Shown in pieces: positions 1 to 57,385 of a stretch of 61,217 bases of DNA (position 1 is the first letter of the stretch; every line of letters starts with the position of its first letter). The translations under genes and the position numbers were made by a program. The notes below the pieces were generated by a model, which made no database searches, was not told where the DNA came from, and was given only the letters and a program-made list of their open reading frames with translations. Where the stretch lies: positions 1 through 61,217 of IMG/VR virus record IMGVR_UViG_3300035128_000109; one strand, written 5' to 3'. Source of the DNA: a virus (lineage: Duplodnaviria; Caudoviricetes).

Positions 1-20
1 AATTTGCAATAGGGTCCCAT
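1..20 (-). CDS. 5' end of cassette-3 gene (MGPYCK...), truncated by window edge
   Basis: AGAAAGGA ribosome-binding site followed by ATG GGA CCC TAT TGC AAA, just downstream of the cassette-3 leader. Confidence 0.5.
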
Positions 21-55
21 TTGAAAATCCTTTCTACTGAGAGTAAGCAGCCGGG

Positions 56-125
56 CTTGCGAATTGATCCGCTGCGCCGTTCGGCTGCCAAGACCCCTGC
101 ACTTGGGGTCGCAGCGCAGCCGAAC
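56..125 (-). other. Cassette-3 5' leader: core site GTTCGGC, hairpin, and anti-attC segment
   Basis: 67-81 is the exact reverse complement of 61093-61107 (15/15). 56-64 is the exact reverse complement of 61204-61212 (9/9). Internal hairpin GACCCC/GGGGTC. Confidence 0.8.
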
Positions 126-245
126 GGCCTGCGTTACTGGCAGGCGGATTATGACGGATCCGGCTCATTGCCAGAACTAGACGATTTGACGGTGTGATCT
201 TCGGGCGGCTGTAATGCCGCCTGTCCAGTGCACGCTTTGTTAGCC
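119..245 (-). other. attC: attC site (cassette 2)
   Basis: Minus strand GGCTAAC-AAAGC-GTGCACTG-GACAGGCGG...CCGCCTG-CCAGTAAC-GCAGGCC-GTTCGGC: R''/L''/L'/R' layout with extra-helical bases. R'' side is complementary to the cassette start at 782-793. Confidence 0.9.
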
Positions 246-367
246 GCCATCACGACGAACAGGGCAAGCTGGCTGCCGCGCCCGCGAGATACGCGGAAGC
301 CGCACTTGATAGCGGCCTCCACGATTTGCCGATATGCTTCATCTGTGAGATAGATCGATTTAGGCAT
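149..367 (-). CDS. Small hypothetical protein, possibly DNA-binding (cassette 2, gene 2); C-terminus encoded inside attC
   Basis: Likely start MPKSIYL at 367, overlapping the stop of the upstream ORF. Confidence 0.6.
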   Translation of the reverse strand: MPKSIYLTDEAYRQIVEAAIKCGFRVSRGRGSQLALFVVMAANKACTGQAALQPPEDHTVKSSSSGNEPDPS

Positions 368-704
368 TACTTGCCTTTTCGTAAGCATTCCAAGCTGCCA
401 AATACTCTTTTGGAACCCTGGAAATATCTTTCACATCCTCCCATGCTTGAGTTCCGTCCGGCAGCGTCTTCGATAGACATTGCCAAGTATAGTCAAATGG
501 TCGGAGCGGATGAGTCCACTCCCTATACTTGGCCTCCATCTTGCGGAGTTCTTTTGTAATTTCTAAGAACTCCCGATATCTTTTTTCTCGCTCACGCTTA
601 TCTTCTATGGCGTTCACGAGAGATTGCCTTGCGATTTCTGGATTTATTTCTTTCAAAATTGCAAAACCTTCAAGCTCTTGTTTGTTTCTAAAAATGCCGT
701 TCAT
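360..704 (-). CDS. Hypothetical protein (cassette 2, gene 1)
   Basis: 114-aa ORF with AAGGAG RBS, directly downstream of a consensus promoter. Confidence 0.75.
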   Translation of the reverse strand: MNGIFRNKQELEGFAILKEINPEIARQSLVNAIEDKREREKRYREFLEITKELRKMEAKYREWTHPLRPFDYTWQCLSKTLPDGTQAWEDVKDISRVPKEYLAAWNAYEKASNA

Positions 705-735
705 TTTTTATCTCCTTTTGTTTATCTATAGTTAT

Positions 736-763
736 ATTATACTCATATTCTATAGATTGTCAA
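736..763 (-). promoter_or_regulatory. Sigma70-type promoter inside cassette 2
   Basis: TTGACA-N16-TATAAT, both hexamers perfect. Confidence 0.8.
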
Positions 764-786
764 GAGGCAATTTCTAGTAAAGTGGC

Positions 787-915
787 GGCTAATGGCTTGC
801 GTTAGCGGCTCGCCGATTCGTCCTGACAACCATGCGGACACATATAACGATAACCGTGCAGGCACAATTCTGGCGGGGGCGGTACAGGCGAGTCCGCCTG
901 CACGCTTTGTTGGGC
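787..915 (-). other. attC: attC site (cassette 1) with degenerate R' core (ATTAGCC)
   Basis: GCCCAAC-AAAGC-GTGCAGGC-GGACTCGCC...GGCGAG-CCGCTAAC-GCAAGCC-ATTAGCC. R'' matches GTTGGGC at 1062-1068. Confidence 0.85.
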
Positions 916-1038
916 GGCTTCTTTGAGAACAGTGTTTTCGTTTTGCACCTGACGCAACTTTGCAAGAGTTACATTTAGTGCATCTCGACAATTGCCATGC
1001 AAGGCAATCAACTCATCCAATTCAGTTGTTATGCTCAT
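802..1038 (-). CDS. Hypothetical protein (cassette 1); C-terminal half encoded within attC
   Basis: 78-aa ORF with AAAGGAAG RBS immediately after the cassette core site. Confidence 0.65.
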   Translation of the reverse strand: MSITTELDELIALHGNCRDALNVTLAKLRQVQNENTVLKEAAQQSVQADSPVPPPPELCLHGYRYMCPHGCQDESASR

Positions 1039-1061
1039 GACTTCCTTTCGGCGGAGTGTCC

Positions 1062-1085
1062 GCCCAACTTATGATTCTACTATCA
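1062..1085 (-). other. attI: Putative attI site abutting the intI stop codon
   Basis: ...GTAGAATCATAA-GTTGGGC: GTTRRRY core directly after the integrase TAA, complementary to R'' of the first attC, with no attC stem upstream. Confidence 0.7.
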
Positions 1086-2064
1086 CCTTCTGCATAACAG
1101 GAAGTGCTTTCATGTAATCCAACGGCGAACTAACCGACGCAGCCCTCAAGTGGTGCGTGTAAATCATTGTTGTTTCAAGTTTTTTGTGACCTAACAGTTC
1201 CTGCACAGTCCTAATATCTGTGCCATGTTGAAGCAAATGGGTTGCAAAACAATGACGAAAAATGTGTGGATAACACCGCTTTGCTATGCCGGCTTTCTCG
1301 CCCGCCCTTCTAACTGCACGTTGAATACTGGACTCATGAATGTGATGCCGGCCAACGCGCTCACTTCGAGGATCTTTTGATAACTGCGAAGATGGAAAAA
1401 CATACTGCCATTTCCATTGAAAAGCAGCATTCGGATATTTTCTCCTCAACGCATAAGGCAATTCTACTTCTCCATAACCGTTAGCGAGATCTGCCTGATG
1501 TTGTGCTTTTACAATATTCAAATGCAATTGCAGAGCTGGAATAACAACCAAGGGAAGGCAAGTGGTTCGGTCTGCATTCCCCTTCGTATCGCGGAGGACG
1601 ATCACGTGATTATAAAAGTCTATTTCTTTCACCCGTAACTTCAAGCATTCATTCAAGCGCAGTCCTGCACCATACATCAACTGCGCCATGATCTTGTAAA
1701 CTCCATCCATATTTTCAACGACACAATGAATCTCGCCCTCTGTCAAAACCTCCGGAATCCGATTATCACGCTTAGCTCGAAATAGCTCTATGTTTTCAAT
1801 CCGAATACCATAAAGTTTGTATAAAAACAAAACAGCCGCCAGCGCCTGACCTTGGGTGGTTGGGCTTAGATTCTTGACGACAGACAAATGAGTAATGTAT
1901 CGCTTCACGCCAAACGACCTTGCTTCCCGGGGATGCTCGCCGGCTAAGAACCGGATATACCGACGAATCCAGCCCACATAAGTCTTTTCTGTTCTCGCAG
2001 ATCGACCTTTCCGTCGCAAAGCATTCTTATATTCAGCAATCAGTGTGTTTTCTGTCATTTTCAT
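1069..2064 (-). CDS. intI: Integron integrase (IntI-type tyrosine recombinase)
   Basis: GLRLNE, TKG, HIFRH, LLGH and TMIY catalytic motifs plus the IntI-specific insert [30 protein letters not shown]. Confidence 0.95.
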
Positions 2065-2296
2065 TCACTCTCGATTTGTCAGACAACTCCGCCGGCGGGG
2101 GTGGGGAAGAAGTCTGATCGCCAATCCACAAAATGAAACTTGCTAAACTATCAGAGCAAGGAACAACAATATGCCAACGTCCAATACGCCAACGGAACTT
2201 GTATACGCCATTTTGATTGATAGAAAGTCCGAAATTTTTCCTAACCTTGATAGCTTTCACGTTTTCTCCTACAGACGTATAATCTATAAGGTACAT
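2033..2296 (-). CDS. Hypothetical protein
   Basis: 87-aa ORF overlapping the intI start. Confidence 0.45.
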
Positions 2297-2370
2297 TACA
2301 GATTATACAACCATTTTGCCAGCCTGACTAGGGTCTCTGCATTACCAACTATTCTGTATTAGTTGGTGAA

Positions 2371-3249
2371 CTACAACTTCGCAGTTAATTCTTTTAGTTT
2401 AGACAGGTTTTTTTCTTGCATTGCTTTTGCTTCATTCCAAAAACCTTCATCAATGTGCAACTCTATTTCTTCTCTTACCAAATCGGCCAAGTCATTAGCC
2501 CTGATTGCATCCAACTCCCACGAGAAGCGACCAAACTCGGACACATAACCCGGAGCCCTGGAATCTGTCATCTTGGCCGGGTTGGGCGGAAGCGACCATA
2601 AATCAACTTGATCCCTGAGCAGCGCAATGCGCGTTATTTCAATATCAAATTCACCCTCCAAAAGTAGCCTTGTCCGTTCTGCAATGTCCCTATCCATGTC
2701 GAGACCGGAGGCGTCGTGGTCGCCCAAATAAATTATATGGAGTTCTTTCATATCGTCGCCCTGCTTTATAAACCTGTCCGCAACATCTTTCAACAATGAA
2801 GCGGAAGCGTAGCCGCGATTGGCTGTAAAGCCTACGCCTAATTCGTTGCACACAGGTTCTATGATGTTTGAGACTGCATCTTTTTCACACATGACTTCGA
2901 TGTAGCACGGCTGAAGCAGCCACAAATCTTCCCTGTATGAGTTCAGCACAGAACGCATGATTGACCTTGGGCTTCCCCAGGTTGATGGCCTTTCGGTGGA
3001 GCGCCCACGATCTTCGATAGCATCCCAATCCACAAGCCCAGACCAACGCGCATCGTTGATTATAGAAGCTAGGCGCTTATACGTTTTCAGGTTGTTGGGT
3101 ATCAGGTCGGCAGATACCATCTGGTAGTAAAGTTGTCTCAATGTCATTCGATACCCCATATCAAAATACGCTTCGATGATTGAGTTTGCTTGCTCGATTA
3201 GTTCAAGGCTTGATTTCTGAAAATTCTTTTCAATATATGCGTACTTCAC
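2371..3249 (-). CDS. Topoisomerase VI-A/TOPRIM-like domain protein
   Basis: TLRQLYYQ helix, EVMCEKDA and YLGDHDASG (TOPRIM E and DxD) motifs. Confidence 0.7.
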   Translation of the reverse strand: MKYAYIEKNFQKSSLELIEQANSIIEAYFDMGYRMTLRQLYYQMVSADLIPNNLKTYKRLASIINDARWSGLVDWDAIEDRGRSTERPSTWGSPRSIMRSVLNSYREDLWLLQPCYIEVMCEKDAVSNIIEPVCNELGVGFTANRGYASASLLKDVADRFIKQGDDMKELHIIYLGDHDASGLDMDRDIAERTRLLLEGEFDIEITRIALLRDQVDLWSLPPNPAKMTDSRAPGYVSEFGRFSWELDAIRANDLADLVREEIELHIDEGFWNEAKAMQEKNLSKLKELTAKL

Positions 3250-3743
3250 CTCGTTACTCCTCGCTCCGCTTTCAAAGCATACACCCGCCGAATAGCCCGA
3301 TCACAGACCTCCAACAGATCATCTCTGTCTGACATTCTTTCATAGACCATGGTAGCCGTGATCCCCTCACGCCCCAACGACTCCCGCAACCGTTCCATAA
3401 AAGCCTCCGGATCCGTTCGAACCAGGAACACAACCTCATCCCCAGAGGCATAATTCGCCTTGAGGAGCAGGTCATCATGTCGAAAGTCAAACGCCCTCCG
3501 TATCATATCATTGACAGGCTCTTGGGAACCGTGTCGGTCATTCAACTGGTGGAGGTAATCAATATCGATCATGACTACATACCTCTCACCTTTCAGCCGG
3601 CGATTCTCGATCTCCAGCGCCTGGCGCGTGAGGGTCCCGTAATTGGGATTCACGCGCAGGGCTTTGTTTTCCTGCTCGAGCTCGGCAATGCGCCGCAATA
3701 AAGCGGCACGACTCAGGTTATTCATTGCGCCCTCCAATGTCAA
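3246..3743 (-). CDS. Stand-alone GGDEF-like (diguanylate cyclase-like) protein
   Basis: TLTRQ, MIDIDYLHQLNDRHG and SGDEV motifs, with a short N-terminal coiled coil. Confidence 0.75.
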   Translation of the reverse strand: MTLEGAMNNLSRAALLRRIAELEQENKALRVNPNYGTLTRQALEIENRRLKGERYVVMIDIDYLHQLNDRHGSQEPVNDMIRRAFDFRHDDLLLKANYASGDEVVFLVRTDPEAFMERLRESLGREGITATMVYERMSDRDDLLEVCDRAIRRVYALKAERGVTR

Positions 3744-3939
3744 TTTTACTCAAAGATTCAACCGGGAACGTCCAGTAGGATACAAACGTGTCCACGCTCG
3801 TGTCTCCATCTCCAGGGAAACACATAGACATCTGGTGATTCAGATAAACTACCTTGTCTTTACGGCTGACTTTTTCCACCCGGGCGATTCCCTGGCATCG
3901 ATCAACTCGCACGAAGTCACCCTTCTTGATTGTCGGCAT
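3718..3939 (-). CDS. Hypothetical protein
   Basis: Coupled ORF within the operon. Confidence 0.55.
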   Translation of the reverse strand: MPTIKKGDFVRVDRCQGIARVEKVSRKDKVVYLNHQMSMCFPGDGDTSVDTFVSYWTFPVESLSKIDIGGRNE

Positions 3940-4198
3940 CGTCCACCTCCTCCGCCGGAACCCGACCGGTCCCCTTGCAGGTCTCGCAGTGTTTTATAAG
4001 AGGATAAACAGAAATGGTTTGTGGAATCCATTTATGACCAGACCCATCGCACCCAGGACATTTCTCCCAGGCATTAGGATTCCTTGGGCATCCGGGAGTT
4101 TGGCACTCATACGATACCGGCCCCCAGCGTAGCCTGGCATACCCCTCGTTCACATCCACCAGGTCATACCCGCACTCAGGGCAAATAGGACTACCCAC
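3917..4198 (-). CDS. Cys-rich zinc-finger protein
   Basis: CPECG, CPGCDGSG and CETCKGTG (DnaJ-like CxxCxGxG) motifs. Confidence 0.65.
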   Translation of the reverse strand: MGSPICPECGYDLVDVNEGYARLRWGPVSYECQTPGCPRNPNAWEKCPGCDGSGHKWIPQTISVYPLIKHCETCKGTGRVPAEEVDDADNQEG

Positions 4199-4403
4199 GA
4201 TTCACATCCTGTCTGGCAACCTCCAGCCAGGACTCCGTATCGACCAAGTCGCCAGTGGTCAGACAACGGCCAACCTGCTCGCCTTTCACCTCGGCCAACT
4301 TAGCCCGGAATGTCTCGGCAAACCACTTCGTAAACTCAGGCTCCCCCATGAGATCACTAAGGGCCCTATACAATTCTATTCTCAATTTCATCAACTCACC
4401 CAC
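4191..4403 (-). CDS. Hypothetical protein
   Basis: Start and stop overlap the neighbouring ORFs. Confidence 0.55.
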   Translation of the reverse strand: MGELMKLRIELYRALSDLMGEPEFTKWFAETFRAKLAEVKGEQVGRCLTTGDLVDTESWLEVARQDVNRG

Positions 4404-4680
4404 TGGACTCTCCCTTCAACTCAGCAATCCTGGCCTGAATGAGCTCGATCCGCTCAGAGACAGGACCGAACGCCGGCACATTACGGTCATCGGCATACCA
4501 ATCATGCGCTCCATCAGGATCCAGCTCCAGCAACATAGAAAACACGTTTCGCTCTTCCTCCAGCTTGCGCTCGAGTCGATCCTTGCGCTCGGCCTCCCAG
4601 GCCTCTTCCTGCCAGGCCTGCACACGCTCACGATAGGATTGATTTACATGATAATTGCCATTCGATAAACCAGTAGGCAT
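4396..4680 (-). CDS. Hypothetical protein
   Basis: Coupled ORF. Confidence 0.6.
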   Translation of the reverse strand: MPTGLSNGNYHVNQSYRERVQAWQEEAWEAERKDRLERKLEEERNVFSMLLELDPDGAHDWYADDRNVPAFGPVSERIELIQARIAELKGESSG

Positions 4681-5030
4681 TATCTAAACTCCCAAGGCCG
4701 GCGAGGAGAAAGTTTCCGCAAATTGACAGGTTTCGCCTCGTGCCCAATAAATCTCGCGTTATCCTCTTCATCCGTTGACTCCCCCATCCAGATGTTGCGG
4801 GTTACGATGGTACGACCGTCAAAGGTCTCAATCACGAACTTACGGCCGGCAAACCCCTTCGAAGGCCGAACCCAACGCTGGCCATAGGAATTTCCGGCCA
4901 GGACTTTGCCAGTAACATCCGGTTCCACGGTGTACCGGATACCACCGATCACAAAGCACTCAGCCTCCACCAGGCGCTCTGCCGGCGAAGTCGAAACTAT
5001 AACTTGAAACTTTTCCTGAATTTCAGACAT
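4680..5030 (-). CDS. Hypothetical protein
   Basis: AGGAG RBS; first gene after the promoter at 5067-5095. Confidence 0.7.
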   Translation of the reverse strand: MSEIQEKFQVIVSTSPAERLVEAECFVIGGIRYTVEPDVTGKVLAGNSYGQRWVRPSKGFAGRKFVIETFDGRTIVTRNIWMGESTDEEDNARFIGHEAKPVNLRKLSPRRPWEFR

Positions 5031-5066
5031 ACTAACTCCTAGACTTTGGATGGTTACTACGTTACA

Positions 5067-5095
5067 AGTATAAGCGATAAACTATTATTTGTCAA
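5067..5095 (-). promoter_or_regulatory. Sigma70-type promoter of the early operon leading toward intI
   Basis: TTGACA-N17-TATACT. Confidence 0.75.
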
Positions 5096-5103
5096 TGGTT
5101 TTA

Positions 5104-5928
5104 TTATAACAACTTCATTTGATCGGCTCCCCCGTCCGCAGCCGGCCCGGTATAGCTCGGGAACTCCCGGATCCACAACCTATCAGGGATTCTTCCCCGG
5201 TTCCCAGGCCGAAGCCCGGAGTCCTGTTTGACAAAAACACTCACCCCATAGTTCCGGCACTCATCAATATTGAATTGCAACCCATCCAGATCAAGAGGCG
5301 TATACCCAGGCCCCGACTCACCCCCAAATATCGCCATTGAGATCCAGTTCTCAACCGACAGATGCCGCGATAGGTACGCCGGCCCCAGCATCGGCTCGAA
5401 ACTCACGAAGATCGGATGGGCATCCAACTCACGCAAAAGCGGAAGCCGCGTCCGAGCCGTGGTCTCGTTTGTGATCGATACTCCAGGCCAGATGTTCTCA
5501 GGCACCCGCCCCAGCTTCTCGAAAAATCTCAGCATCCGCTTGACCCGCTTGGTCAAGATCATGTAAATGTGAGGAGTGGACTCCAGAGCCGGAACGAACT
5601 CAACCAGCCAATCTAGCGGGAGTCCCTTGGTGAACGTATCGCCCATATCATTCAGGAAAATCAACCGGGGCATTTCGGGCGGGATCCAGGGTTTATCCGG
5701 TCTTGGCTTCCCCCGCAGGTCTGACCAGGACAGAGCATATTTGATGCGCTCGGGGAAGATCGCCGGCTGGTCGAACGAGGCCGGCCAGCCCTTCGAACCT
5801 GCGTACTTCTCGGTCATACGCCCGGCGTAGCAGGATCGGTTTTTTGTATTCCACAATTCGCATCCCTGGCAGCCCATCTGCAAATTCAGTGTTGAGTCGC
5901 ACCAGGCGATATCAGTCTTGATCGCCAT
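5104..5928 (-). CDS. DUF5131 / phage Gp37Gp68 family protein
   Basis: Start MAIKTDIAWCD; GCxGC...CYA, IFLNDMGD, ILTKR, SFEPMLG, GGESGP and VFVKQ motifs. Confidence 0.85.
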   Translation of the reverse strand: MAIKTDIAWCDSTLNLQMGCQGCELWNTKNRSCYAGRMTEKYAGSKGWPASFDQPAIFPERIKYALSWSDLRGKPRPDKPWIPPEMPRLIFLNDMGDTFTKGLPLDWLVEFVPALESTPHIYMILTKRVKRMLRFFEKLGRVPENIWPGVSITNETTARTRLPLLRELDAHPIFVSFEPMLGPAYLSRHLSVENWISMAIFGGESGPGYTPLDLDGLQFNIDECRNYGVSVFVKQDSGLRPGNRGRIPDRLWIREFPSYTGPAADGGADQMKLL

Positions 5929-6058
5929 TGCCGACAGCCTCTTCGAATAACTCCACAATAAACCTTGCAGGAGGATCCTCGTCAAACTCTGCCGCTATCC
6001 CAAGAAAAAGACCAGCAATAGCAACAAAGAAAGCTGAAAAAAGTTTTTTGAAGTTCAT
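5912..6058 (-). CDS. Small membrane or secreted protein
   Basis: MNFKKLFSAFFVAIAGLFLGIAA hydrophobic N-terminus. Confidence 0.45.
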   Translation of the reverse strand: MNFKKLFSAFFVAIAGLFLGIAAEFDEDPPARFIVELFEEAVGNGDQD

Positions 6059-10145: not shown

Positions 10146-11156
10146 TCATACGCGCCTCGCCTGTTTCACGACGGCACGGAACGACTGCTTGTCGAAGCCG
10201 GCTCCCAGGATGTAGTCATCCACTTTCTGGTTGAGTCTAAGGATTTTCAAATCCCGATCTCCATATGTTTCCTTGACATTTTTCAACGCCCAGGGTCTTA
10301 CGTCGGGATCCGGAATATAGCAGATATGAGCGGCATTGATTGACTCGAGCAGATCACGGCTGGGTGACATCGGCAACCCAAACGCCTGGGTGCGAGGATC
10401 ATCGAAGGTCAGCCAAGCGACCGCCGCTTTTTTCTCTCCCTCCACCAAGAAGGCCCAATCCGCGTCATTGCATAGATCAAGGTTGGCGATGAATACCGGC
10501 TCGAACCCGACAGAATATTCCATGCGGTACTTCGTCCCGTCCGGTTGCGGAACGATCAAGCGATGCTTGACATTGACCACGCCCCCATCCAGATTCCGCT
10601 CTGCAATCGTGGCTGTGGGAGTGACGTGCTTCGCCCACCCATCACCAGAGTCGTAATAGAACTCATGCTCACGATCCCAACCTAACCCCCACTCAATCCA
10701 CTTCTCCGCAATATCTATGCCGGCATCAGACCAGTACCTCGCGCCGGCATCCTCAAAAAATAGCGCATCCGTATAGAGCTCCCATTTTTTCTCGTCGCGT
10801 AGCAACTGTAGAGCCTTCTCAGCCTCGGCCTTGCGCCGCTCCTCCTCAACAATCCGTTCCTGTTTCCACTGTTCTAGCTTTTCAGGATCCGGCTTGAACT
10901 CTTTGTCGGGCAGCCACTTGAACCCACAGACCCGGCACCAGCCAATAGTGACTCCGGTCTTACTGTGAGCCTGGGGAAACATCCGGAACCGGTCAGGCCA
11001 CTCCCCGCTCGAGTGTGGAGCACCTCCGCACTCCGGGCAGGTACTGGACCATTCCTTCCCCCGGATCCGTTCGACAATATATTGAACATGACCTTGCAAT
11101 TCGTAAAATTCAGGGTGCAGTGATGACTCACGCATTGGCTTCCTCCAGACTGTCAT
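10146..11156 (-). CDS. DNA primase (Zn finger + TOPRIM)
   Basis: CPECGG...CRVCG, LVEGEKKA and PDPD motifs; follows the helicase. Confidence 0.75.
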   Translation of the reverse strand: MTVWRKPMRESSLHPEFYELQGHVQYIVERIRGKEWSSTCPECGGAPHSSGEWPDRFRMFPQAHSKTGVTIGWCRVCGFKWLPDKEFKPDPEKLEQWKQERIVEEERRKAEAEKALQLLRDEKKWELYTDALFFEDAGARYWSDAGIDIAEKWIEWGLGWDREHEFYYDSGDGWAKHVTPTATIAERNLDGGVVNVKHRLIVPQPDGTKYRMEYSVGFEPVFIANLDLCNDADWAFLVEGEKKAAVAWLTFDDPRTQAFGLPMSPSRDLLESINAAHICYIPDPDVRPWALKNVKETYGDRDLKILRLNQKVDDYILGAGFDKQSFRAVVKQARRV

Positions 11157-12177
11157 TATCTCTTTCAGGATCGTAATATTTCATCTCCCCCTGGACCAGG
11201 TAATTGTATTCCGGTTCAAACTTTACAAACTTCTTGAAATTCTCAGGTCCCTTCTTTCTCTTCAAAACCGAAACGATCATATCGTTATGGTCTTTCACAT
11301 ATAGCAGCGGAGCATCCTTTTTTCCAAACCCTGGCGGCGTTTTATCGTCAGGCGTAACGTAGTGACTCGGACGAACTACAGACAACACTCCATCAGAGAA
11401 CTGCTCCACAGTCGAGGTCCACTGGCCGTCATCCATCATGGGGATCGGAACCTGACGGGTATCGACCTCGCGCTTGGCCTGGCAGCCCAGGACCATGCGC
11501 GTGTTGAAGTCCTCCGCCAGGTTCTTCAACCCATTGACCAGATCCCCATAGAACTCCACCCAAGCGCTTCCTCGAGGCCGGAACCGCTGTAGGTAGTCGA
11601 TGAAGATAGAGTCGATCTCCTGCACGACCTGATTCCCCTGCCACTCTTCCACGTTCCCCATGGCATCCCTCAAAGTGGTCTCGGTGATCTCAGTCTTATC
11701 GCGCCGGCGCTGTTTGCTCTTCCCGATAAACCACAACGGGCTGGTCATCATGTGAGGGCTCGCCAGATGGGTCTGCACACGACCCCAATCTTTCGGCTCC
11801 AGCTTGCCGGCGGCCATGTCTGTGATAGATATCCGGAGCTCGGCAGCCACATGGAAGAGGCGCAATTCCTCGACCAACTGCTCCGCCGTCATATAAAGCA
11901 CGATCTTATTGTCGACTCCCATGTGTTTGAGATGGCCGGCACGCATCCGGGCCCACCTCATCAAGAGGCTCGACTTCCCGCTCCCGGGCCGGCCTAAGAC
12001 CGTGATCAACTCCCCGGGCACCACGGGCAGGAATCCCTTCCCGGACTCCGGGTCATAATCCATGCCGTTGATATAGATCGGCATTCCCTGGTCGCCGCCC
12101 TTGCGAATGTGGTCCACGTACTCGGTTGTAGCATTCGAGGCCTCGACCGCAGTAAAGACAAGCGTTGAACTGGTCAT
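11128..12177 (-). CDS. DnaB-like replicative helicase
   Basis: Walker A GRPGSGKS, IFIDYLQ, CQAKRE and EQFSD motifs. Confidence 0.85.
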   Translation of the reverse strand: MTSSTLVFTAVEASNATTEYVDHIRKGGDQGMPIYINGMDYDPESGKGFLPVVPGELITVLGRPGSGKSSLLMRWARMRAGHLKHMGVDNKIVLYMTAEQLVEELRLFHVAAELRISITDMAAGKLEPKDWGRVQTHLASPHMMTSPLWFIGKSKQRRRDKTEITETTLRDAMGNVEEWQGNQVVQEIDSIFIDYLQRFRPRGSAWVEFYGDLVNGLKNLAEDFNTRMVLGCQAKREVDTRQVPIPMMDDGQWTSTVEQFSDGVLSVVRPSHYVTPDDKTPPGFGKKDAPLLYVKDHNDMIVSVLKRKKGPENFKKFVKFEPEYNYLVQGEMKYYDPERDNDSLEEANA

Positions 12178-13082: not shown

Positions 13083-13786
13083 GAAATTACCCTCCAGTCA
13101 ATCCCAATATTTAACAACTTATCCAATTCATCTTTAGACAAATCAAACCACTCTCGATGGGTTTGATTTTTGCAAAAAGCCACGTGTAACGATATTTCTA
13201 CTTCGCTATAATCTTCCACAAACGCACAGGCCAACATACGAAAAGAAGGATTGGTGCTCTGAATCTCCCTCTCTCTTTTTCTCACGTGAACAGTTTTCCC
13301 AATTTTATATCCCTTATTAGAATTGTCTTGACCTATATAAACATACCCTCTCATGACTCCCTCTCCCTTTTTTGCCAACTCATCCAACGCCGGCCACTCA
13401 ACGGCCTCAATCTCCCCAACGCGCTGCTCTGGATGATATCCGAGTGTATAGGCCATAATACGCATCCGGCACGAATTACACCGTTTGCACAATTCCCGCC
13501 GGCTCTCCTCACGATCCACCTTCGCAAAAACCTGATCGTGAGATAGATATGATAAATCCGGCAAGGAATACGGACTCTGGTGCTTGTATCCTCGCCGGAC
13601 CATTTCAGCAGCCAGGTCATTATGCCGGCGCTCCATCTCGATAGGCTCGATCTGCACGACCGGAGAGAGCCGGCCATCAATCGAGTGCTGCTTGACAAAG
13701 TTATGCCTGAACTTGTGAATCTCAGCGTGCTCCCCGAGCAAGTGCTGCCGGCATAACAACATTGGGTCAATCATCCACATTCTCAT
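13079..13786 (-). CDS. Pyrimidine-dimer glycosylase (T4 EndoV-like) domain fused to a GIY-YIG/T5orf172-like domain
   Basis: MRMW...LCRQHLLGEH.EIH...EMVRRGYKH at the N-terminus; GYVYI...YKIGKT...E..LH...REWF at the C-terminus. Confidence 0.7.
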   Translation of the reverse strand: MRMWMIDPMLLCRQHLLGEHAEIHKFRHNFVKQHSIDGRLSPVVQIEPIEMERRHNDLAAEMVRRGYKHQSPYSLPDLSYLSHDQVFAKVDREESRRELCKRCNSCRMRIMAYTLGYHPEQRVGEIEAVEWPALDELAKKGEGVMRGYVYIGQDNSNKGYKIGKTVHVRKREREIQSTNPSFRMLACAFVEDYSEVEISLHVAFCKNQTHREWFDLSKDELDKLLNIGIDWRVIS

Positions 13787-41214: not shown

Positions 41215-42204
41215 TCAACACCCCGTCGCATGTAATACGCCACAATTGCTGTTGGCGTCGTATTTGATGCGGGGTACCTGTGCGGTCATGATCCTAAAGT
41301 CTGTGATCATGCCCCCCATCTCGGTCCACTGGATTGGGGCCATGCTCATGCCTATAGCCAGGTCGACTACGTTCGAGGTCATCTGGACCATGACCATGTG
41401 GCCGGCGGTCAACTCGTAGGACGGCTTTACATCGATGACTTCTGGGATGTTCTTCTTGACCGTCGAAATTTCACTGTTAGCGTTTGTCGGATCGATCAGG
41501 TTGAGAGTCTCTCCGTATTGGGTCGAGGCCAGATAGATCATGAACGGGCCCTTGAAGCCTTTGGCTCGCAGAGCCGTGAGAGCACCCGTCACCGCTTTGT
41601 ATAAGTTGCCGGCGGTTCCAAAATCTCCCGAACCAAGAGCAGCCGCAGTCGTTTGGATACGATTGGTGGCTGTGGTGTAACCCTGGATGGTATAGCCGGC
41701 CAATTGCTTAGCATGGCCAGAGAAAAGCATGGTCTCCAACGATTCGGTTACCACTCGGGTAGCCGCAGCAATGTGGTCGGTTTCCAACGGGTCACCGCTC
41801 TGGCGAGCGGATTCCAGATCACGGAGATCAAAGGAGAATTCCTTATAGATCACAGGAACCGGAATATTGACCTGCGTATATTCCACGCGATCACGTTCGC
41901 CCTGCACGTCCACAGACATCGTGACGTTGGCGGCTGTCATTTCACCGACCTGTTCGTAGGCGCTGACCTTGGACCCGAGTCCGCCCAATGTCTTGGTCAG
42001 ACCACGGCTCATCAGGTCGGCCACGCCATTGAGCTCAACTTTGGCGGTCTGAAGGACCACGTTGTCGAGTTCGAGCCATTCATCCTTCTGGAGTAGGGCG
42101 TTCTGGTGTAGACCCACATGAGGCCGGATTTTATGCTGCACGGCAGCCACGCCGCCACGGCCAAACAGGGTCATGATGTCACTTGATTTTGCTTTGAAAG
42201 TCAT
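41215..42204 (-). CDS. Major capsid protein (linocin/encapsulin-like HK97 fold)
   Basis: EWLELD..V, GVADL..RGL, PVIYKEF...RDLE..R and PRIK.D motifs. Confidence 0.85.
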   Translation of the reverse strand: MTFKAKSSDIMTLFGRGGVAAVQHKIRPHVGLHQNALLQKDEWLELDNVVLQTAKVELNGVADLMSRGLTKTLGGLGSKVSAYEQVGEMTAANVTMSVDVQGERDRVEYTQVNIPVPVIYKEFSFDLRDLESARQSGDPLETDHIAAATRVVTESLETMLFSGHAKQLAGYTIQGYTTATNRIQTTAAALGSGDFGTAGNLYKAVTGALTALRAKGFKGPFMIYLASTQYGETLNLIDPTNANSEISTVKKNIPEVIDVKPSYELTAGHMVMVQMTSNVVDLAIGMSMAPIQWTEMGGMITDFRIMTAQVPRIKYDANSNCGVLHATGC

Positions 42205-44932: not shown

Positions 44933-44961
44933 TTGACGTATAGGGGTTTGTGTGTTATATT
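44933..44961 (+). promoter_or_regulatory. Sigma70-type promoter of an AT-rich insert
   Basis: TTGACG-N17-TATATT. Confidence 0.6.
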
Positions 44962-45060
44962 GAGCATATCATCCAATCTAGGAGAGATTATACACTGTCC
45001 AAAAATCGGGACCCATGCACGTCCTTTGAGTTTCTTTTATGCAAACAGAAAGAGTTTGAC

Positions 45061-45354
45061 ATGATAAAAGAATCGGAAAATATAAGCGGGGAAAGTATTT
45101 ATATAGAGAATTTAATCTCTTTTGTTGATTCAAATGAATTATCATTTGACATTTTAGAATCCTTAATTGAAATTGTTGACGGCTATGAATATCATGAATT
45201 CTATTTTCGTGGAAAGTGGATTATAAATTATTGTCCAATTTGTGAAGGGGAAAAAGAATCTACATTTACCGAAGTCCCTGGACATTTAGAAAATTGTCCT
45301 GTTGAAAAGCTCATGAAAACACTACAAAGGAAACTGGAAAATGAAAAAAAATAA
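45061..45354 (+). CDS. AT-rich hypothetical protein
   Basis: YCPIC...H..NCP motif; start uncertain (ORF track starts it at 44950). Confidence 0.55.
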   Translation: MIKESENISGESIYIENLISFVDSNELSFDILESLIEIVDGYEYHEFYFRGKWIINYCPICEGEKESTFTEVPGHLENCPVEKLMKTLQRKLENEKK

Positions 45355-45580
45355 TAGTTTTGACCAAATCATAGACCACTTGGTTAGTCGCTATGGTGTT
45401 CCAAAAAAATTTCCACTAGGACAAGCTAATAATTTACAACTTCACAATAGAACAAGAATTATTTTAGGAAAAAGATTTGCAAAAGTCTATTTTTTTTCAG
45501 TTATTTGGATAATAAGGTGCTTTGCAATAATAATCTCGCATAAAATTAAGCACCTCCTAATAAAGCATGTACGCGGATAG
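45341..45580 (+). CDS. AT-rich hypothetical protein ending in an attC relic
   Basis: Coupled to the previous ORF. Confidence 0.45.
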   Translation: MKKNNSFDQIIDHLVSRYGVPKKFPLGQANNLQLHNRTRIILGKRFAKVYFFSVIWIIRCFAIIISHKIKHLLIKHVRG

Positions 45581-45699
45581 CGGGAGAGTCCCAAAAAGTA
45601 TGCACGTCAACCGCTCCGGCCACTACTGCTAGATTAAATAACCCTGGCAATGGAAATCAACCGTCATAATCCAGCCACTGGTAACGCAGGCTGTTCGGC
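45555..45699 (+). other. attC: Degenerate solo attC site
   Basis: TCCTAAT-AAAGC-ATGTACGC-GGATAGCGG...CTGGCAATG...CCGTCATAATCC...GTAACGCAGGCT-GTTCGGC; shares blocks with attC 119-245. Confidence 0.65.
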
Positions 45700-45705
45700 G
45701 ACAAC

Positions 45706-53181: not shown

Positions 53182-55365
53182 TTATTCACCATCCTTTTCG
53201 GGAGCCGATTCTTCTGATAATTCAGGTTCAGTCACTTCCAGATTGAACCCGCGCCATTCACCGCCATCCACCAGGTACACCTTGGAGAAATTCAATTCCA
53301 TCGGCTCCACGGTATCAATCGGCATCTCATCGCCGGCGTAGATGTACGCCAGAGTCATGTGGGGGATAAAGCCATGATTCTTGTGGTAGGGTATCCCTTG
53401 TTTACCCAGATAGGCGCAAAGTTCCTGTCGGAATTCGGGTAAGTCGGGGGAGTCTATAGTAGCCACAATCGGATCCTCTTCGCCGCCCGAAACGAACCGG
53501 GCAATACCCTGCAAGGTGGTCTTGATCGGGTTCGAAGTCTTAGCAAACTCACTGACAGCTAACGCGGCCTTTTCCATGTCCAGGGTGCGAGAGTCGCCCA
53601 GGAACGCCAGGGTAATATGAAGATTATCCCGCGTCTCATCGCTCATAAATGGGTATTTCTCTTGCAACTCATCCCGTAGAGCCGGCGGAATCCGGAACGC
53701 AACCATGGCCGAATTCTCGTTCTCGTTGTGAATGAGAACCGGGCCGGCGGTCGTGGGATACCAATGGTCACCGGTGGCCATTACTATATGGCCGGCTTGG
53801 ATATTGGACAATTTTATAGAATGTGTATCGGTCTCTAGCGCCTTGCGTATTCTGTTCAACTCGACCGTCACTGGCTTAGAATCTTTCTCACCTCCACCTT
53901 GTGGGGGATTAGAACCGTTCTTGCCCTGGTCGCCGGGTGGATTCATACGATTGCGCTCTTCAAGTTCGGCTTGTTTGCGTTTCTGTTCGGGAGTCCAGAC
54001 GTAATCCATGTAACGGCTGGCAAACTCTTCGAGCGGCATGACGATCTCGGGAGCGTTGCCTGAAGCCGTAGCAATAGCCTGGGCAGCTTTGAGGGCCAAA
54101 TCCATCTTTTGCATGTCATTCAACTCGATGAGAGACGGCCAAAAGACAAAATACTTATCTGGGAGGTCCAGAATACCAAGTTCATCACAACGTTTCATGA
54201 ATGGTCTTAGGATGTAAGGCTCCGCGAAGTTGTGCCGGCGAGCATCAATCAGGTCCATGAAATTATCATCGTCCTGAGAACTGGCCAATTGGCCGCGTTC
54301 GGAGCCCAGGAGTCTCCGCTGGGGGATTCCTTTTGCGCCGGCAATGTACTCTACGATCACATCGAATTGTTCCCTGGAATCTACAGGTTTTCCTCCAAGC
54401 TCTTTCACATTCAATCCTTGAGCCCGAACAACCCGACGGAGATTATGTTCCCATTCATCCCATTCATCTTGCATATCTTCATATTCAGTTGAATCTTTTG
54501 GAGGCGCAGAAAATCCTTCATCTGCTTGTAGAACAACACCCTGATAAATAAGTTTCCAAAACGCCTCAGAGCCGCCCCCCAGCACCTTCTCGAGATCCCA
54601 CAGGCGATTGATAATATTCTTCAACCCCGGAACACCGTACACGCGCCCTAAACCACCAACGCGCTGCCGGCCCTGTTTGATGTGGATTACACGAGAATAA
54701 TGAACTCGCCTGGTAATTTCTCCCTGGTCATCGATGATGATATTGTAATAATTAGGCTGGCCAAACCTTTCAGACTCCGGGTTTTTTTCGATGTTGGCCT
54801 CATCAACGGTAGCAGTGCCTTCATCACAGGCGATCACGTAGGCCAGTTCGCCGGCCTGTCCCTCCACCTTTTCCTCAGGCTTCCCTGGTAGCCCCAGATA
54901 CAGCAAGGAGAACCGGGAGATCCCGAGCATCCGGTCAACCTCCAGGAACTGAGCCCAGAGATCGTGCTGGTCTGCCAATTCCTTAAAACTTTCGTGCAGC
55001 GTGCCAGGGTCGGCTTTATCATCCTCGGCTTTGTCCTCGCTTTCAAACAGTACCGGATGTTTCCGCCAAGTCTCGTCGGCAACAATATCGACGACTCGCG
55101 TCCCCAAGCCGTCACGTTCGTAGATGTTGAGATAATCCACATACTCAGGATCAAGTTTATACCCAAGGGTATCGTAAAGATTACGTTTTCCATCAAAAGA
55201 CTGCCCCAGGGCACGCCCCAGGCCGGCGCGGGTCAGTCGCGAAAGATACGCATTGGCCTGCATAGCATGATCAAGCTCGCGGTGGGCTGCGTTGAGTTTG
55301 TTCTGCAAATCAGCTTTGGTACCGGCCCGGGGTTTCTTGGTATTACTCTTACTCTGAACGGTCAT
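53182..55365 (-). CDS. Portal protein (DUF1073 type) fused to a C-terminal 2H phosphoesterase (Acb1/LigT-like)
   Basis: Follows TerL; VHYSRVIH, GGGSEAFW and IPQRRLLGSERGQLAS motifs; C-terminal LHITL and PHMTL HxT motifs. Confidence 0.85.
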   Translation of the reverse strand: MTVQSKSNTKKPRAGTKADLQNKLNAAHRELDHAMQANAYLSRLTRAGLGRALGQSFDGKRNLYDTLGYKLDPEYVDYLNIYERDGLGTRVVDIVADETWRKHPVLFESEDKAEDDKADPGTLHESFKELADQHDLWAQFLEVDRMLGISRFSLLYLGLPGKPEEKVEGQAGELAYVIACDEGTATVDEANIEKNPESERFGQPNYYNIIIDDQGEITRRVHYSRVIHIKQGRQRVGGLGRVYGVPGLKNIINRLWDLEKVLGGGSEAFWKLIYQGVVLQADEGFSAPPKDSTEYEDMQDEWDEWEHNLRRVVRAQGLNVKELGGKPVDSREQFDVIVEYIAGAKGIPQRRLLGSERGQLASSQDDDNFMDLIDARRHNFAEPYILRPFMKRCDELGILDLPDKYFVFWPSLIELNDMQKMDLALKAAQAIATASGNAPEIVMPLEEFASRYMDYVWTPEQKRKQAELEERNRMNPPGDQGKNGSNPPQGGGEKDSKPVTVELNRIRKALETDTHSIKLSNIQAGHIVMATGDHWYPTTAGPVLIHNENENSAMVAFRIPPALRDELQEKYPFMSDETRDNLHITLAFLGDSRTLDMEKAALAVSEFAKTSNPIKTTLQGIARFVSGGEEDPIVATIDSPDLPEFRQELCAYLGKQGIPYHKNHGFIPHMTLAYIYAGDEMPIDTVEPMELNFSKVYLVDGGEWRGFNLEVTEPELSEESAPEKDGE

Positions 55366-55368
55366 TGA

Positions 55369-56841
55369 TTACCTTCTTCCAAATGTGCCGTAATATTTTT
55401 TCACCGGCTTAGGAGCGAATACCTGTATCACTGTGTCGGCGTAATTGGTAGAACGCCCAATTCTCTTTTTTATATCATCCTTCCCCTCAACCTGGATTTT
55501 ACCACCTGATTGCACCTTCCACTTCGGTGCAACGAGCTCCCCCGTTAATTCATCATCGGGAGGCAGGTCAATCTCATCATACTGCAAAGATTCGCGTATA
55601 TTCCACCAAGCAGCCGACCTCATATTCGCAAAACCCAACTCTCCCGACCTGTCTGTCATTTCTGTTTTTTCGCTTGCGTTGAAGGGGATAACACGCTCCT
55701 TTATCTTCCATCCCTCGGCCTCACGCGCCCGATCATAAACGCCGGCACCGACCCCGATCAGGTCAATAACTGCTCTAGCATCCGTATGCGCTTGAAGTAA
55801 ACCCACCACGACTCCAGTAACGTGCATCACGTCCCGGACATCCAGCCGGCGAAATTCAGTGATCGCGTTTCCGCACCGAATCCCAATTACAGACGGGTCA
55901 CCACCACGACCAACATCGACACCAAAGCCGACAACATCCCCCCAATCCTCAAGCTCTTTCCTGACAAGCCAGCGTTCATTTGAACGCTCAACCCACGAGA
56001 GAGGAATAACACTATCTTCATCACTGGATGCAAAGTCGCCAAGGACGCGGTTTATATAAACGCTTGAGTCTTCTCCCCACTGCCTTTTTCTAGCCTTCGC
56101 CCAATTCTCGTTGATCCTGCCGGCTGTGATTGCCATCTCCAGTGTAACCCGGAACACTTCCCAATCCTCGTATCCGCGCTTTCTTGAGTGTATATCATAG
56201 AACCGACCAATCGGCTCCCCTGGAGTGGAAACAGCCAACCAGAAGCAATCCCCCGTTGACATTGCACCTTCGGCGGCATCCCAGGTATCATCAGGGACGG
56301 CCTTGCTCTCATCGAATAGGTAGAGAATATTATCCGCGTGAGCCCCTTCGATCAGGGCTGCATTGTCTGAGGCGATAGCAAACGCTTCACCAGTATCCAG
56401 TTTTATACTTAACGTGAGCATTTCATTACGAGTGAATGGAAGCCGGCCTATTTTATCCCATTTCAACCGGTAAGACCATTTATGTATTTCTGGCCATAGG
56501 AAGTGAGACAGCTGTCTCCAGGCACTTGCAAGAGTCGGGATCTTCCAATCCTCTCCATCCCTGGTAAGCGCAAACCATAAAATAACAATTGCAGCGAAGG
56601 CCGTTTTTCCCAGGCCATGTGGACCACGCATAGAAAAACGCCGATATTTGACCAGCCGTCGCATTCCTTCAAGTTGGTATTCGGTTATCTCCTCCCCTCT
56701 CCAATCTATACATTCCCGAGCAAACCCCGCCAGATCCGACCAGTACTTTTTCTGGAATAGTTGGTAGGCGCTTTGAGAATCGCCAGTGATCCTCCGCCGG
56801 CGCTCCAGTTCAGCCTTAGCTCTTGTTTGCAAGTACATCAT
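55369..56841 (-). CDS. terL: Terminase large subunit
   Basis: GPHGLGKT, LFDES, STP, GVDVGRGGD and KRIGRSTNYAD motifs. Confidence 0.95.
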   Translation of the reverse strand: MMYLQTRAKAELERRRRITGDSQSAYQLFQKKYWSDLAGFARECIDWRGEEITEYQLEGMRRLVKYRRFSMRGPHGLGKTAFAAIVILWFALTRDGEDWKIPTLASAWRQLSHFLWPEIHKWSYRLKWDKIGRLPFTRNEMLTLSIKLDTGEAFAIASDNAALIEGAHADNILYLFDESKAVPDDTWDAAEGAMSTGDCFWLAVSTPGEPIGRFYDIHSRKRGYEDWEVFRVTLEMAITAGRINENWAKARKRQWGEDSSVYINRVLGDFASSDEDSVIPLSWVERSNERWLVRKELEDWGDVVGFGVDVGRGGDPSVIGIRCGNAITEFRRLDVRDVMHVTGVVVGLLQAHTDARAVIDLIGVGAGVYDRAREAEGWKIKERVIPFNASEKTEMTDRSGELGFANMRSAAWWNIRESLQYDEIDLPPDDELTGELVAPKWKVQSGGKIQVEGKDDIKKRIGRSTNYADTVIQVFAPKPVKKYYGTFGRR

Positions 56842-57385
56842 AGATATTATCGCCTTTGGCTAAACGCTCCAATTGATCGGTTGTAAGGTTGGTCAGGTCC
56901 AGACTTTTTATATTATCCGTGAATAAGGCATGATGCCGGCCCAATTGCACAAGCGCATCTTTCGCATCGTACAACTCAACCTCGACCCACTCATGTTCCC
57001 ATACCTCAGCATCTTTCCCTCTTCCGGAAACCAATCGCTTCCTCTTTGTCTTTATCTTTTTGATGAGATGCAGATAATCTTTTGCATCTGGGTGTGAAAA
57101 ATCGAAAAAAACGAAACCATCCTTGGTTATATTGATAAATGGAACCAAGCTGCCCCTGGCCATATCTGACAGCCGCTTTAGAACTTCATTGGCCGACATG
57201 GCAGCTTCCGATAGGCGTTCTTCGATATATTTTCGGATATGGGGCTTTTGTAGATTTTGGAAACCTATGATCTTGGCTGATTTTTCCGAGTAGCCGGCTT
57301 CCCTGGCAGCCCTGGCAGCGTTCCAGTGAATCAGGTAGTGCTCAACGAATAGTTTTTGTAGATCGGTTAGTTTTTGGGATGACAT
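56816..57385 (-). CDS. terS: Terminase small subunit
   Basis: LTDLQKLFVEHYL..NAARAAREAGYSEKSA...L.KPHI pattern. Confidence 0.9.
   Translation of the reverse strand: MSSQKLTDLQKLFVEHYLIHWNAARAAREAGYSEKSAKIIGFQNLQKPHIRKYIEERLSEAAMSANEVLKRLSDMARGSLVPFINITKDGFVFFDFSHPDAKDYLHLIKKIKTKRKRLVSGRGKDAEVWEHEWVEVELYDAKDALVQLGRHHALFTDNIKSLDLTNLTTDQLERLAKGDNIYDVLANKS

Follow-up and report, generated by a model that had tools for sequence, protein, structure and literature searches.

Does a tailed phage genome carry an integron of its own? Integrons are known above all as bacterial gene-capture devices, and the few phage examples resemble accidental pick-ups. The question is raised by the IMG/VR virus record IMGVR_UViG_3300035128_000109, from an uncultivated wetland phage and analysed here over its whole length of 61,217 bases (the window), in which a gene for an integron integrase (intI) is followed on the same strand by an array of gene cassettes and attC sites. 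An earlier note on this DNA, made from the letters alone, had described a complete integron in a tailed phage, with intI co-oriented with its cassettes and the array 3' of intI, and that description holds: an IntI, attC sites matching a covariance model and phage genes are all present. We consider it probable (roughly 80%) that this is a genuine integron and part of a temperate tailed phage genome.

Integrase, attI site and cassette array

The integrase and its array occupy both ends of the window, with these features:

1069-2064, minus strand: intI, integron integrase of 331 aa (TIGR02249, 376.4 bits; cut-off 265)
1060-1068, minus strand: attI-side crossover box GTTGGGCGG, directly 3' of the intI stop
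793-1067, minus strand: cassette 1, with a 78-aa open reading frame (ORF; 802-1038) without a family match
125-792, minus strand: cassette 2, with two overlapping ORFs, 704-360 (114 aa) and 388-149 (79 aa)
1-124, minus strand: 5' part of cassette 3, with a junction hairpin (128-116/88-76) and an ORF start (20-18), cut by the contig end
61089-61217, minus strand: 3' part of cassette 3 with attC3; R'' box ..CCGAAC cut by the contig end, R' box GTTAGGG at 61095-61089
60145-61094, minus strand: cassette 4, with a junction hairpin, R'' box GTTCGCCCTAAC (60941-60930) and L'/R' at 60184-60139
60799-60185, minus strand: C5 DNA methyltransferase gene in cassette 4 (phrog_363, 91.7 bits)
59631-60144, minus strand: cassette 5, with a 121-aa ORF (60035-59670)
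59857-59625, minus strand: attC5, 233 nt; R' box GTTAGGC at 59631-59625

The intI reading frame is intact, and its product contains a stretch, LPxALxxKYPNA...W.Y.FPS, that we take to be IntI-specific and lacking from other tyrosine recombinases. The earlier identification of an IntI with its catalytic motifs and integron-specific insert agrees with the TIGR02249 score and with an alignment to VchIntIA/IntI4 (PDB 2a3v) over residues 20-316 (236 bits), in which the insert and the R, K, HxxR, H and Y positions all align; by this alignment the protein shares the fold family and the IntI-specific insert of VchIntIA. Its score against the class-type equivalog NF011946 (262.9 bits) lies below the cut-off of 435, which makes it a distant IntI outside the named classes. 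Membership of the class 1-5 mobile integrons was likewise not found, given that score and a blastn comparison of window positions 1-6000 with 50,697 deposited phage records that returned no match.

The attI side lies at the very end of the gene. The intI TAA stop (1071-1069) runs without a gap into GTTGGGCGG, as the note had said of a stop codon abutting GTTGGGC. In a comparison of 12 IntI loci taken from viral, genome and metagenome collections, 10 loci (the window plus nine relatives of about 60% identity) had GTAGAATCA-T(A/G)A-GTT in common at the 3' end of the gene. Eight of those ten extend at least 6 nt past GTT, and beyond the first few bases they are unrelated; the six bases after GTT (GGGCGG) are common to the window and locus L167 only. 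Conservation that stops exactly at G|TT, with differing sequence downstream, points to the attI crossover (motif G|TTRRRY, as given by Qi et al. 2023, PMC9892861). Judged from this comparison, the predicted attI site overlaps the 3' end of intI, with the G|TT crossover right behind the stop codon.

The five cassettes have the boundaries proposed for them, the last R' box (GTTAGGC) ending at 59625, and, as proposed, cassette starts complement the R'' box of the same cassette over 9-12 nt wherever this could be checked. The complementarity spans 9 nt in cassette 1 (GTTGGGCGG with CCGCCCAAC), 10 nt in cassette 2 ((A)TTAGCCGCCA with TGGCGGCTAA(C)), and 12 nt in both cassette 4 (GTTAGGGCGAAC, 61095-61084, with GTTCGCCCTAAC) and cassette 5 (GTTCGGCGTCGC, 60145-60134, with GCGACGCCGAAC, 59857-59846). 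In cassette 3, it amounts to 6 nt as far as the contig end, plus a 10-nt proximal copy. We read this complementarity as a trace of circular cassettes.

The sites at the left end of the window belong to a widespread type, which we call type 1. A 19-mer of cassette 1, made up of the R'' box, the spacer and the first part of L'', recurs in 29 stretches of 27 IMG/VR records, and about 100 nt downstream most copies show ..TAAC-GCAAxCC-GTTRRRY. We aligned 28 such sites, all from other viral contigs and none from the window, and built the covariance model R1 on them. In the proposed R and L helices, 83.4% of the cells are paired, a share that drops to 42.7% or less once the partner columns are slid; compensatory changes occur in 7 of the 11 L-box pairs, and the covariation score was reached by 0 of 500 shuffles. 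Only the L box is informative here, because the R'' side is invariant through the way the sites were selected. R1 was then run over the whole window on both strands with filters off, and it returned two strong matches in the array and a weaker one beside it:

784-917, minus strand: attC1 (type 1; 56.1 bits, E 6.8e-13)
116-247, minus strand: attC2 (type 1; 52.5 bits, E 5.9e-12), R' box GTTCGGC at 125-119
59325-59560, minus strand: zinc-ribbon ORF (59560-59342) with a degenerate attC-like site (59454-59325; 20.8 bits, E 0.0012)

One further match lies on the plus strand (45553-45702; 12.7 bits, E 0.15), and beyond these four the window scan gave nothing better than E 1. The parts of attC1 are R'' GCCCAAC, spacer AAAGC, L'' GTGCAGG..., L' ..GCTAAC, spacer GCAAGCC and R' ATTAGCC. 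The attC architecture, with inverted R''/R' and L''/L' boxes, unpaired spacers, extra bases on the L'' side and a variable centre, is seen as covariation across the 28 sites, as R1 matches at attC1 and attC2, and in the three other sites as complementarity alone.

Those three sites are longer than type 1: at least 129 nt in attC3, which is cut by the contig end, 233 nt in attC5 and about 800 nt in attC4. The L boxes of attC3 are AATGAAGCTATCACAGGG (L'') and CCCTGTGTAGCTTAT (L'), and its complete R'' box, across the missing sequence, is expected to read GCAGCCGAAC. In cassettes 4 and 5, the R'' box is followed by a 5-nt spacer and then by AATG(A/G)AG..., a stretch that forms a duplex, bulged on the L'' side, with CCC(C/T)GTAC..GCT(C/T)AT upstream of the next GTT box. 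The resulting duplexes of attC3, attC4 and attC5 reach -37.2, -41.3 and -41.1 kcal/mol (z -4.9, -3.9 and -4.5). Cross-pairs between cassettes 4 and 5 are equally good, so the L-arm pairing is family-wide rather than cassette-specific. Cassette 4 has an additional 16-nt complement between 61047-61032 and 60158-60143; either its methyltransferase gene lies in the variable loop of the attC, or two cassettes have been fused.

The cargo is largely without named relatives. Three of the five unnamed cassette ORFs have no Pfam match, one has a sub-threshold match to NDUFB11 and the zinc-ribbon ORF has weak matches, whereas the methyltransferase ORF has a sub-threshold DNA_methylase match; of five cassette ORFs scanned against PHROGs, only the zinc-ribbon ORF gave matches, again weak. 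Neither ORF of cassette 2 has a family match. The 79-aa one has a 69% identical homologue in the arrays of loci L114 and L128, and the cassette carries its own promoter on the minus strand (763-736, TTGACA-16-TATAAT, 12/12 consensus positions). The idea of a toxin-antitoxin pair comes from this layout. We also observed that the promoter sits inside an operator-like 18-nt inverted repeat (714-767, 78% complementary). Next to the phage integrase gene, the zinc-ribbon unit is probably a fossil cassette, to judge by its attC-like site; the R'' box of that site does not complement the unit's start, and the ORF is 93% conserved in a close relative of the window (L068, below).

Contig ends, junction hairpins and the phage genome

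The two ends of the record do not join directly. The note had assumed that the array wraps contiguously from position 1 to 61217, which proved untenable: on the minus strand, an ORF (MGPYCKF...) is cut off at position 1 after 20 nt, finds no continuation in the sequence at 61217 and runs on for 102 aa in L068 (1860-2165); no suffix of the window of at least 8 nt recurs at its start; and an assembly unitig extends beyond position 1. Some sequence is missing between the two contig ends. An exact search with the 30-mer at the window start found 0 matches in metagenome contigs.

By their pairing, both ends nevertheless belong to one cassette, cassette 3. A perfect 15-nt complement bridges them (AACGGCGCAGCGGAT, 81-67, with ATCCGCTGCGCCGTT, 61107-61093), and CCGAAC (61217-61212), which is followed by a spacer and the family L'', complements the cassette 3 start GTTCGG (125-120). 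Between the ends there are 4 perfect inverted 12-mers, whereas 300 shuffles gave 0.08 on average and never more than 2, and each end lies about 125 nt from a crossover.

Assembly data from sequencing run X1 show how the break may have arisen. A 418-nt unitig (depth 35.1) covers 1-127 and extends 291 nt beyond position 1, and the main contig (depth 16.4) and a second contig (18.9) both join it, sharing 98-136, a stretch that contains the attC2 R' box (125-119). Cassette 3 thus has two upstream contexts in this run, which accounts for an assembly stop about 125 nt into the cassette from both sides. A Logan contig of 19.5 kb, from a sample that is possibly the source of the record, spans position 98 through intI into phage genes. 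Most likely, the genome is circular or circularly permuted, and its assembly broke off within cassette 3.

Cassettes 3-5 share a further feature at their junctions. An inverted copy of the crossover box lies about 30 nt behind the crossover box, and next to it the 12-13 nt found just before the crossover at the same cassette's end are repeated in inverted form; in the circular form of these cassettes, a perfect 23-25 bp palindrome would form across the crossover. In the array, the junction hairpins fold well as DNA (z -4.8, -4.0 and -2.1). Across 334 kb of array-bearing loci, we counted 12 perfect 9-nt GTT...AAC palindromes (24 counting both strands; shuffled mean total 2.0). Five of them stand directly behind an attC spacer; the window has two, L115 has one, and L120 and L129, two copies of one sequence, have one each. 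The hairpins at 60-128, 61032-61107 and 60075-60158 were also considered as short attC sites with outer boxes ATCCGC/GCGGAT and rejected, as the outer half of a hairpin pairs perfectly with the next hairpin and not with its own (15 and 16 nt), which makes the inner box the crossover GTT.

The remainder of the window is a phage genome. IMG/VR classes the record as linear and not as a provirus, and it has no end repeat; CheckV estimates it as 100% complete, and nearly all of its long ORFs lie on the minus strand. PHROG searches in three protein sets gave matches for 6 of 10, 7 of 10 and 3 of 8 proteins, among them the following:

55369-56841: large terminase, TerL (phrog_2, 99.8 bits)
56816-57385: small terminase, TerS (phrog_51, 107.1 bits)
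53182-55365: portal (phrog_146, 170.6 bits)
41215-42204: head protein (phrog_771, 107.5 bits; phrog_264 major head, 38.2 bits)
11128-12177: DnaB-like helicase (PHROG search)
58357-59301, minus strand: phage integrase, a tyrosine recombinase other than IntI (phrog_1, 119.5 bits); likely ATG near 59301, longest ORF to 59481

Terminase, portal and capsid genes are hence on the same molecule as intI. The second recombinase (58357-59481) scores only 26 bits against TIGR02249 and is, by its sequence matches, an ordinary phage integrase. Together, the terminase, portal, head, helicase and integrase genes identify the record as a temperate tailed phage, and the integron lies between the end of the replication and early block and the block of phage integrase and terminase genes.

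Relatives and the spread of the module

The closest comparison is with L068, an IMG/VR contig of 14.6 kb that is 93-96% identical to the window from the phage integrase to the portal gene. In the first 2.8 kb of L068, the small ORFs are different ones, with attC sites between them (74.2, 70.4 and 30.7 bits), and this contig, too, begins inside the array. The comparison of cassette content among related phages that the note had proposed is provided by this pair, in which near-identical phages carry different arrays. At the junction with the zinc-ribbon unit, L068 2857-3137 aligns with window 59858-59394 but lacks window 59738-59560, including the end of attC5, a deletion that fuses the 121-aa ORF to the zinc-ribbon ORF.

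Unrelated phages carry the same kind of element. The 41.5-kb contig G002 is a tailed phage (TerL at 309 bits, head morphogenesis/portal and tape measure genes) that shares with the window only IntI and a tail-gene segment. Its IntI (404.7 bits) is at the right end and four attC sites are at the left end, with 11-nt start/R'' complements in two cases; its last 127 nt equal its positions 3-129, and the circle closes through cassette 1. At the start of the contig (L157 1-129, compared with the end of L159), two extra first bases, CC, precede this repeat, as at the end of an attC spacer. These hint that cassette 1 of G002 may also occur behind an attC or as a circle, although 2 nt are a weak basis. 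In G018 (42 kb), an IntI-like ORF is followed by 7 co-oriented attC sites in mid-contig.

The attC family extends well beyond contigs with an integrase. Over 28 loci of the 27 IMG/VR records with the 19-mer, R1 gave 123 matches (E <= 0.001), 28 of them by construction, with up to 9 attC sites per locus, all on one strand in multi-match loci except L125. One of these 27 records has an IntI above the cut-off, and four have terminal repeats without an IntI. The IntI-less phage contigs with co-oriented attC arrays include the terminal-repeat records G003, G012 and G022. Homologues of the cassette 4 methyltransferase (41-49% identical) stand in ordinary cassettes of five other loci. Four viral contigs with a 47-49% identical IntI (L003-L006) were tried as further arrays and set aside, having one weak attC match and no array.

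A possible host group comes from a metagenome-assembled genome (MAG) labelled Anaerolineales, which has a 60% identical IntI and 6 attC matches on 3 contigs. Upstream of IntI, its contig encodes a DUF5131 protein (presumably the former phage Gp37/Gp68) and an actin-like ALP_N protein, and L169 likewise has DUF5131 upstream. The MAG contig may be a mobile element, so the assignment of the host to Anaerolineales is tentative. We also observed DUF5131 genes directly upstream of intI in L069 (5132-5986) and L169 (6273-7175), whose IntI are 60-61% identical, and the window gene at 5104-5985 (phrog_2045) may belong to the same family.

Mechanism, rival readings and known phage integrons

Each cassette unit runs from TT... 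to ...G, with its attC ordered R''-spacer-L''-variable part-L'-spacer-R' and the variable part long and mostly coding in the window lineage. IntI recombines the folded attC strand with attI at G|TT (PMC9892861), and by this route new cassettes would enter directly behind intI. We speculate that phage DNA replication would supply the single strands. Since the cassettes are co-oriented with intI and with almost all phage genes, they are probably transcribed by read-through from intI or the early operon. Two promoter-like sites on the minus strand, both consensus matches only, lie at 2330-2302 (10/12) and, 3 kb upstream, at 5095-5067 (11/12). An 87-aa ORF without a family match (2033-2296, minus strand) lies downstream of the nearer one and overlaps the intI start by 31 nt. 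We infer that this IntI is a working enzyme and that the window cassettes were moved by it and not by an IntI of the host.

The further claim of the note, that the phage captures and shuffles genes with this integron, finds indirect support: the different array in the 93-96% identical relative, the two contexts of cassette 3 and the divergence after G|TT all favour it, but recombination itself was not observed. Other observations weigh against the integron as we describe it. The contigs of runs X1 and X2 contain no excised circle or rearranged order within the window. X1 may be the record's source sample and is for that reason not independent evidence, and X2, from another study, shows an identical order of cassettes 1-2-3 (positions 1-2477 covered in 7 pieces at >= 99% identity, with short gaps). 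The circle is unclosed in the window record, and closure is seen only in the unrelated G002. R1 recognised only 2 of the 5 window attC sites (E < 1e-10) and missed attC3-5; the G018 IntI-like protein, at 204 bits, falls below the TIGR02249 cut-off; and among 15 metagenome IntI loci only 2 gave attC matches, which were weak, most of these contigs ending close behind intI.

Some of these points, together with others, would suit a phage-borne integron that is a decaying relic, its array static and its cassettes fixed accessory genes. The crossover base of attC1 is A, although it is G in all 28 aligned sites; attC1 and attC2 as free single-stranded DNA fold no better than shuffles (z -0.3 and -1.2); the halves of attC4 (R''/L'' and L'/R') stand about 750 nt apart with the whole methyltransferase gene between them; a fossil attC (20.8 bits) adjoins the phage integrase; and the cassette order is unchanged in the second sample. 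We nonetheless judge a relic unlikely. The IntI reading frame is intact with all catalytic positions aligned, the near-identical relative has a different array, and the contexts of cassette 3 branch at the very stretch that holds the attC2 R' box. The perfect 12-nt start/R'' complements of two cassettes would, moreover, erode without selection or recent movement.

Less likely still, and in our view improbable, is that the contig represents a prophage flanked by host DNA, or else a chimera of the assembly; the integron would then be a sedentary chromosomal integron of a bacterium abutting the phage. The position of integron parts at both contig ends, adjoining the phage integrase, would fit such an origin, as would the Anaerolineales-labelled MAG with its related IntI and the same attC type; attC sites of host integrons are described as flanking prophages, for example in Vibrio anguillarum (Qi et al., PMC9892861). 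Yet the record is classed as linear and not as a provirus, a search for direct repeats that could serve as attL/attR found none of 11 nt or more shared by the integrase-side end and the intI side, both ends fall within a single cassette, and the genes seen at the two ends include none of recognisably bacterial kind. The circle of G002 is completed by way of its first cassette, the array of G018 is internal to its contig, and the neighbours of IntI in the MAG contig (DUF5131, ALP_N) and in L169 (DUF5131) are themselves of mobile-element type. A genuine integron within a temperate phage therefore remains the reading we prefer. More tentatively, and as a possibility we would not favour over its converse, the window may represent an integron lineage native to phages and not borrowed from hosts, marked by the fusion of attI to the stop codon, coding attC loops (one with a whole methyltransferase gene) and, in part of the array, junction hairpins. 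Together with the many IntI-less phages whose arrays have the same attC type, such phages would exchange cassettes within a single host group, possibly Anaerolineales, with the IntI-bearing phages as engines in co-infection.

That a phage can carry an integron was already known, and the background assumption of the note that integrons are typically chromosomal or borne on plasmids and transposons is out of date. Qi et al. 2023 (PMC9892861) describe 3 complete integrons, one In0 and 17 clusters of attC sites without an integrase (CALINs) in 10,705 phage genomes, and 5 of 6 tested phage attC sites recombined with attI1. The complete ones are in Vibrio anguillarum phage Va_90-11-286_p16, E. coli P1 isolate L-II and Shewanella prophage M16-3. 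Like these, the window has an IntI and an attC cassette array inside a phage genome, and its two-gene cassette, like the toxin-antitoxin cassette of the Vibrio phage, has its own promoter. As presented there, however, those integrons are host chromosomal or class 1 pieces taken up by a prophage or phage-plasmid, whereas the window type occurs in three unrelated phage contigs at the same position between the replication and packaging blocks, with a co-oriented intI, an attI that overlaps the stop codon and an attC type common to many phage contigs. The CALINs of the virulent phages TJE1, P12002L and PH101 (PMC9892861) resemble the present loci in their co-oriented attC arrays and recurring DNA methyltransferase cassettes, but the loci here are larger (up to 9 R1 matches) and share one attC family across 27 IMG/VR records.

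In layout, with intI co-oriented with its cassettes and attI downstream, the window also resembles the Treponema-type "inverted integron-integrase group" (PMC3607928, 10.1101/030866). Treponema-type integrons are chromosomal, and the likeness is one of layout only; Cury et al. (10.1101/030866) describe the group as paraphyletic.

Four features appear to be new: the same module in several unrelated uncultivated phages, the fusion of attI to the stop codon of intI, attC sites that are long and coding together with the junction hairpins, and the extent of the phage attC family. None is pointed to in the titles or abstract openings of the nine papers that a search for phage integrons listed, and the supplementary tables of PMC9892861 may list similar attC phages. 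Recurrence at the same position, one widespread attC family and differing cassettes in near-identical phages point to a standing phage integron module. Such a module would let phages swap small accessory genes, DNA methyltransferases recurring among them, without homologous recombination. Standard attC detectors limit site length to near 200 nt; with sites of 233 nt and about 800 nt, as here, phage integrons may be under-counted.

Two minor observations concern attC-like sites in structural regions. At 44950-45702 of the window, a low-GC gap in the minus-strand structural module contains two ORFs on the plus strand (134 and 79 aa), which end in the weak attC-like site noted above, whose 3' half resembles attC2; this segment may be a lone cassette inserted outside the array. 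In the close relative (L138), a strong attC of 60.9 bits (13237-13368, minus strand) lies on the opposite strand in the structural region, within sequence that has no match in the window.

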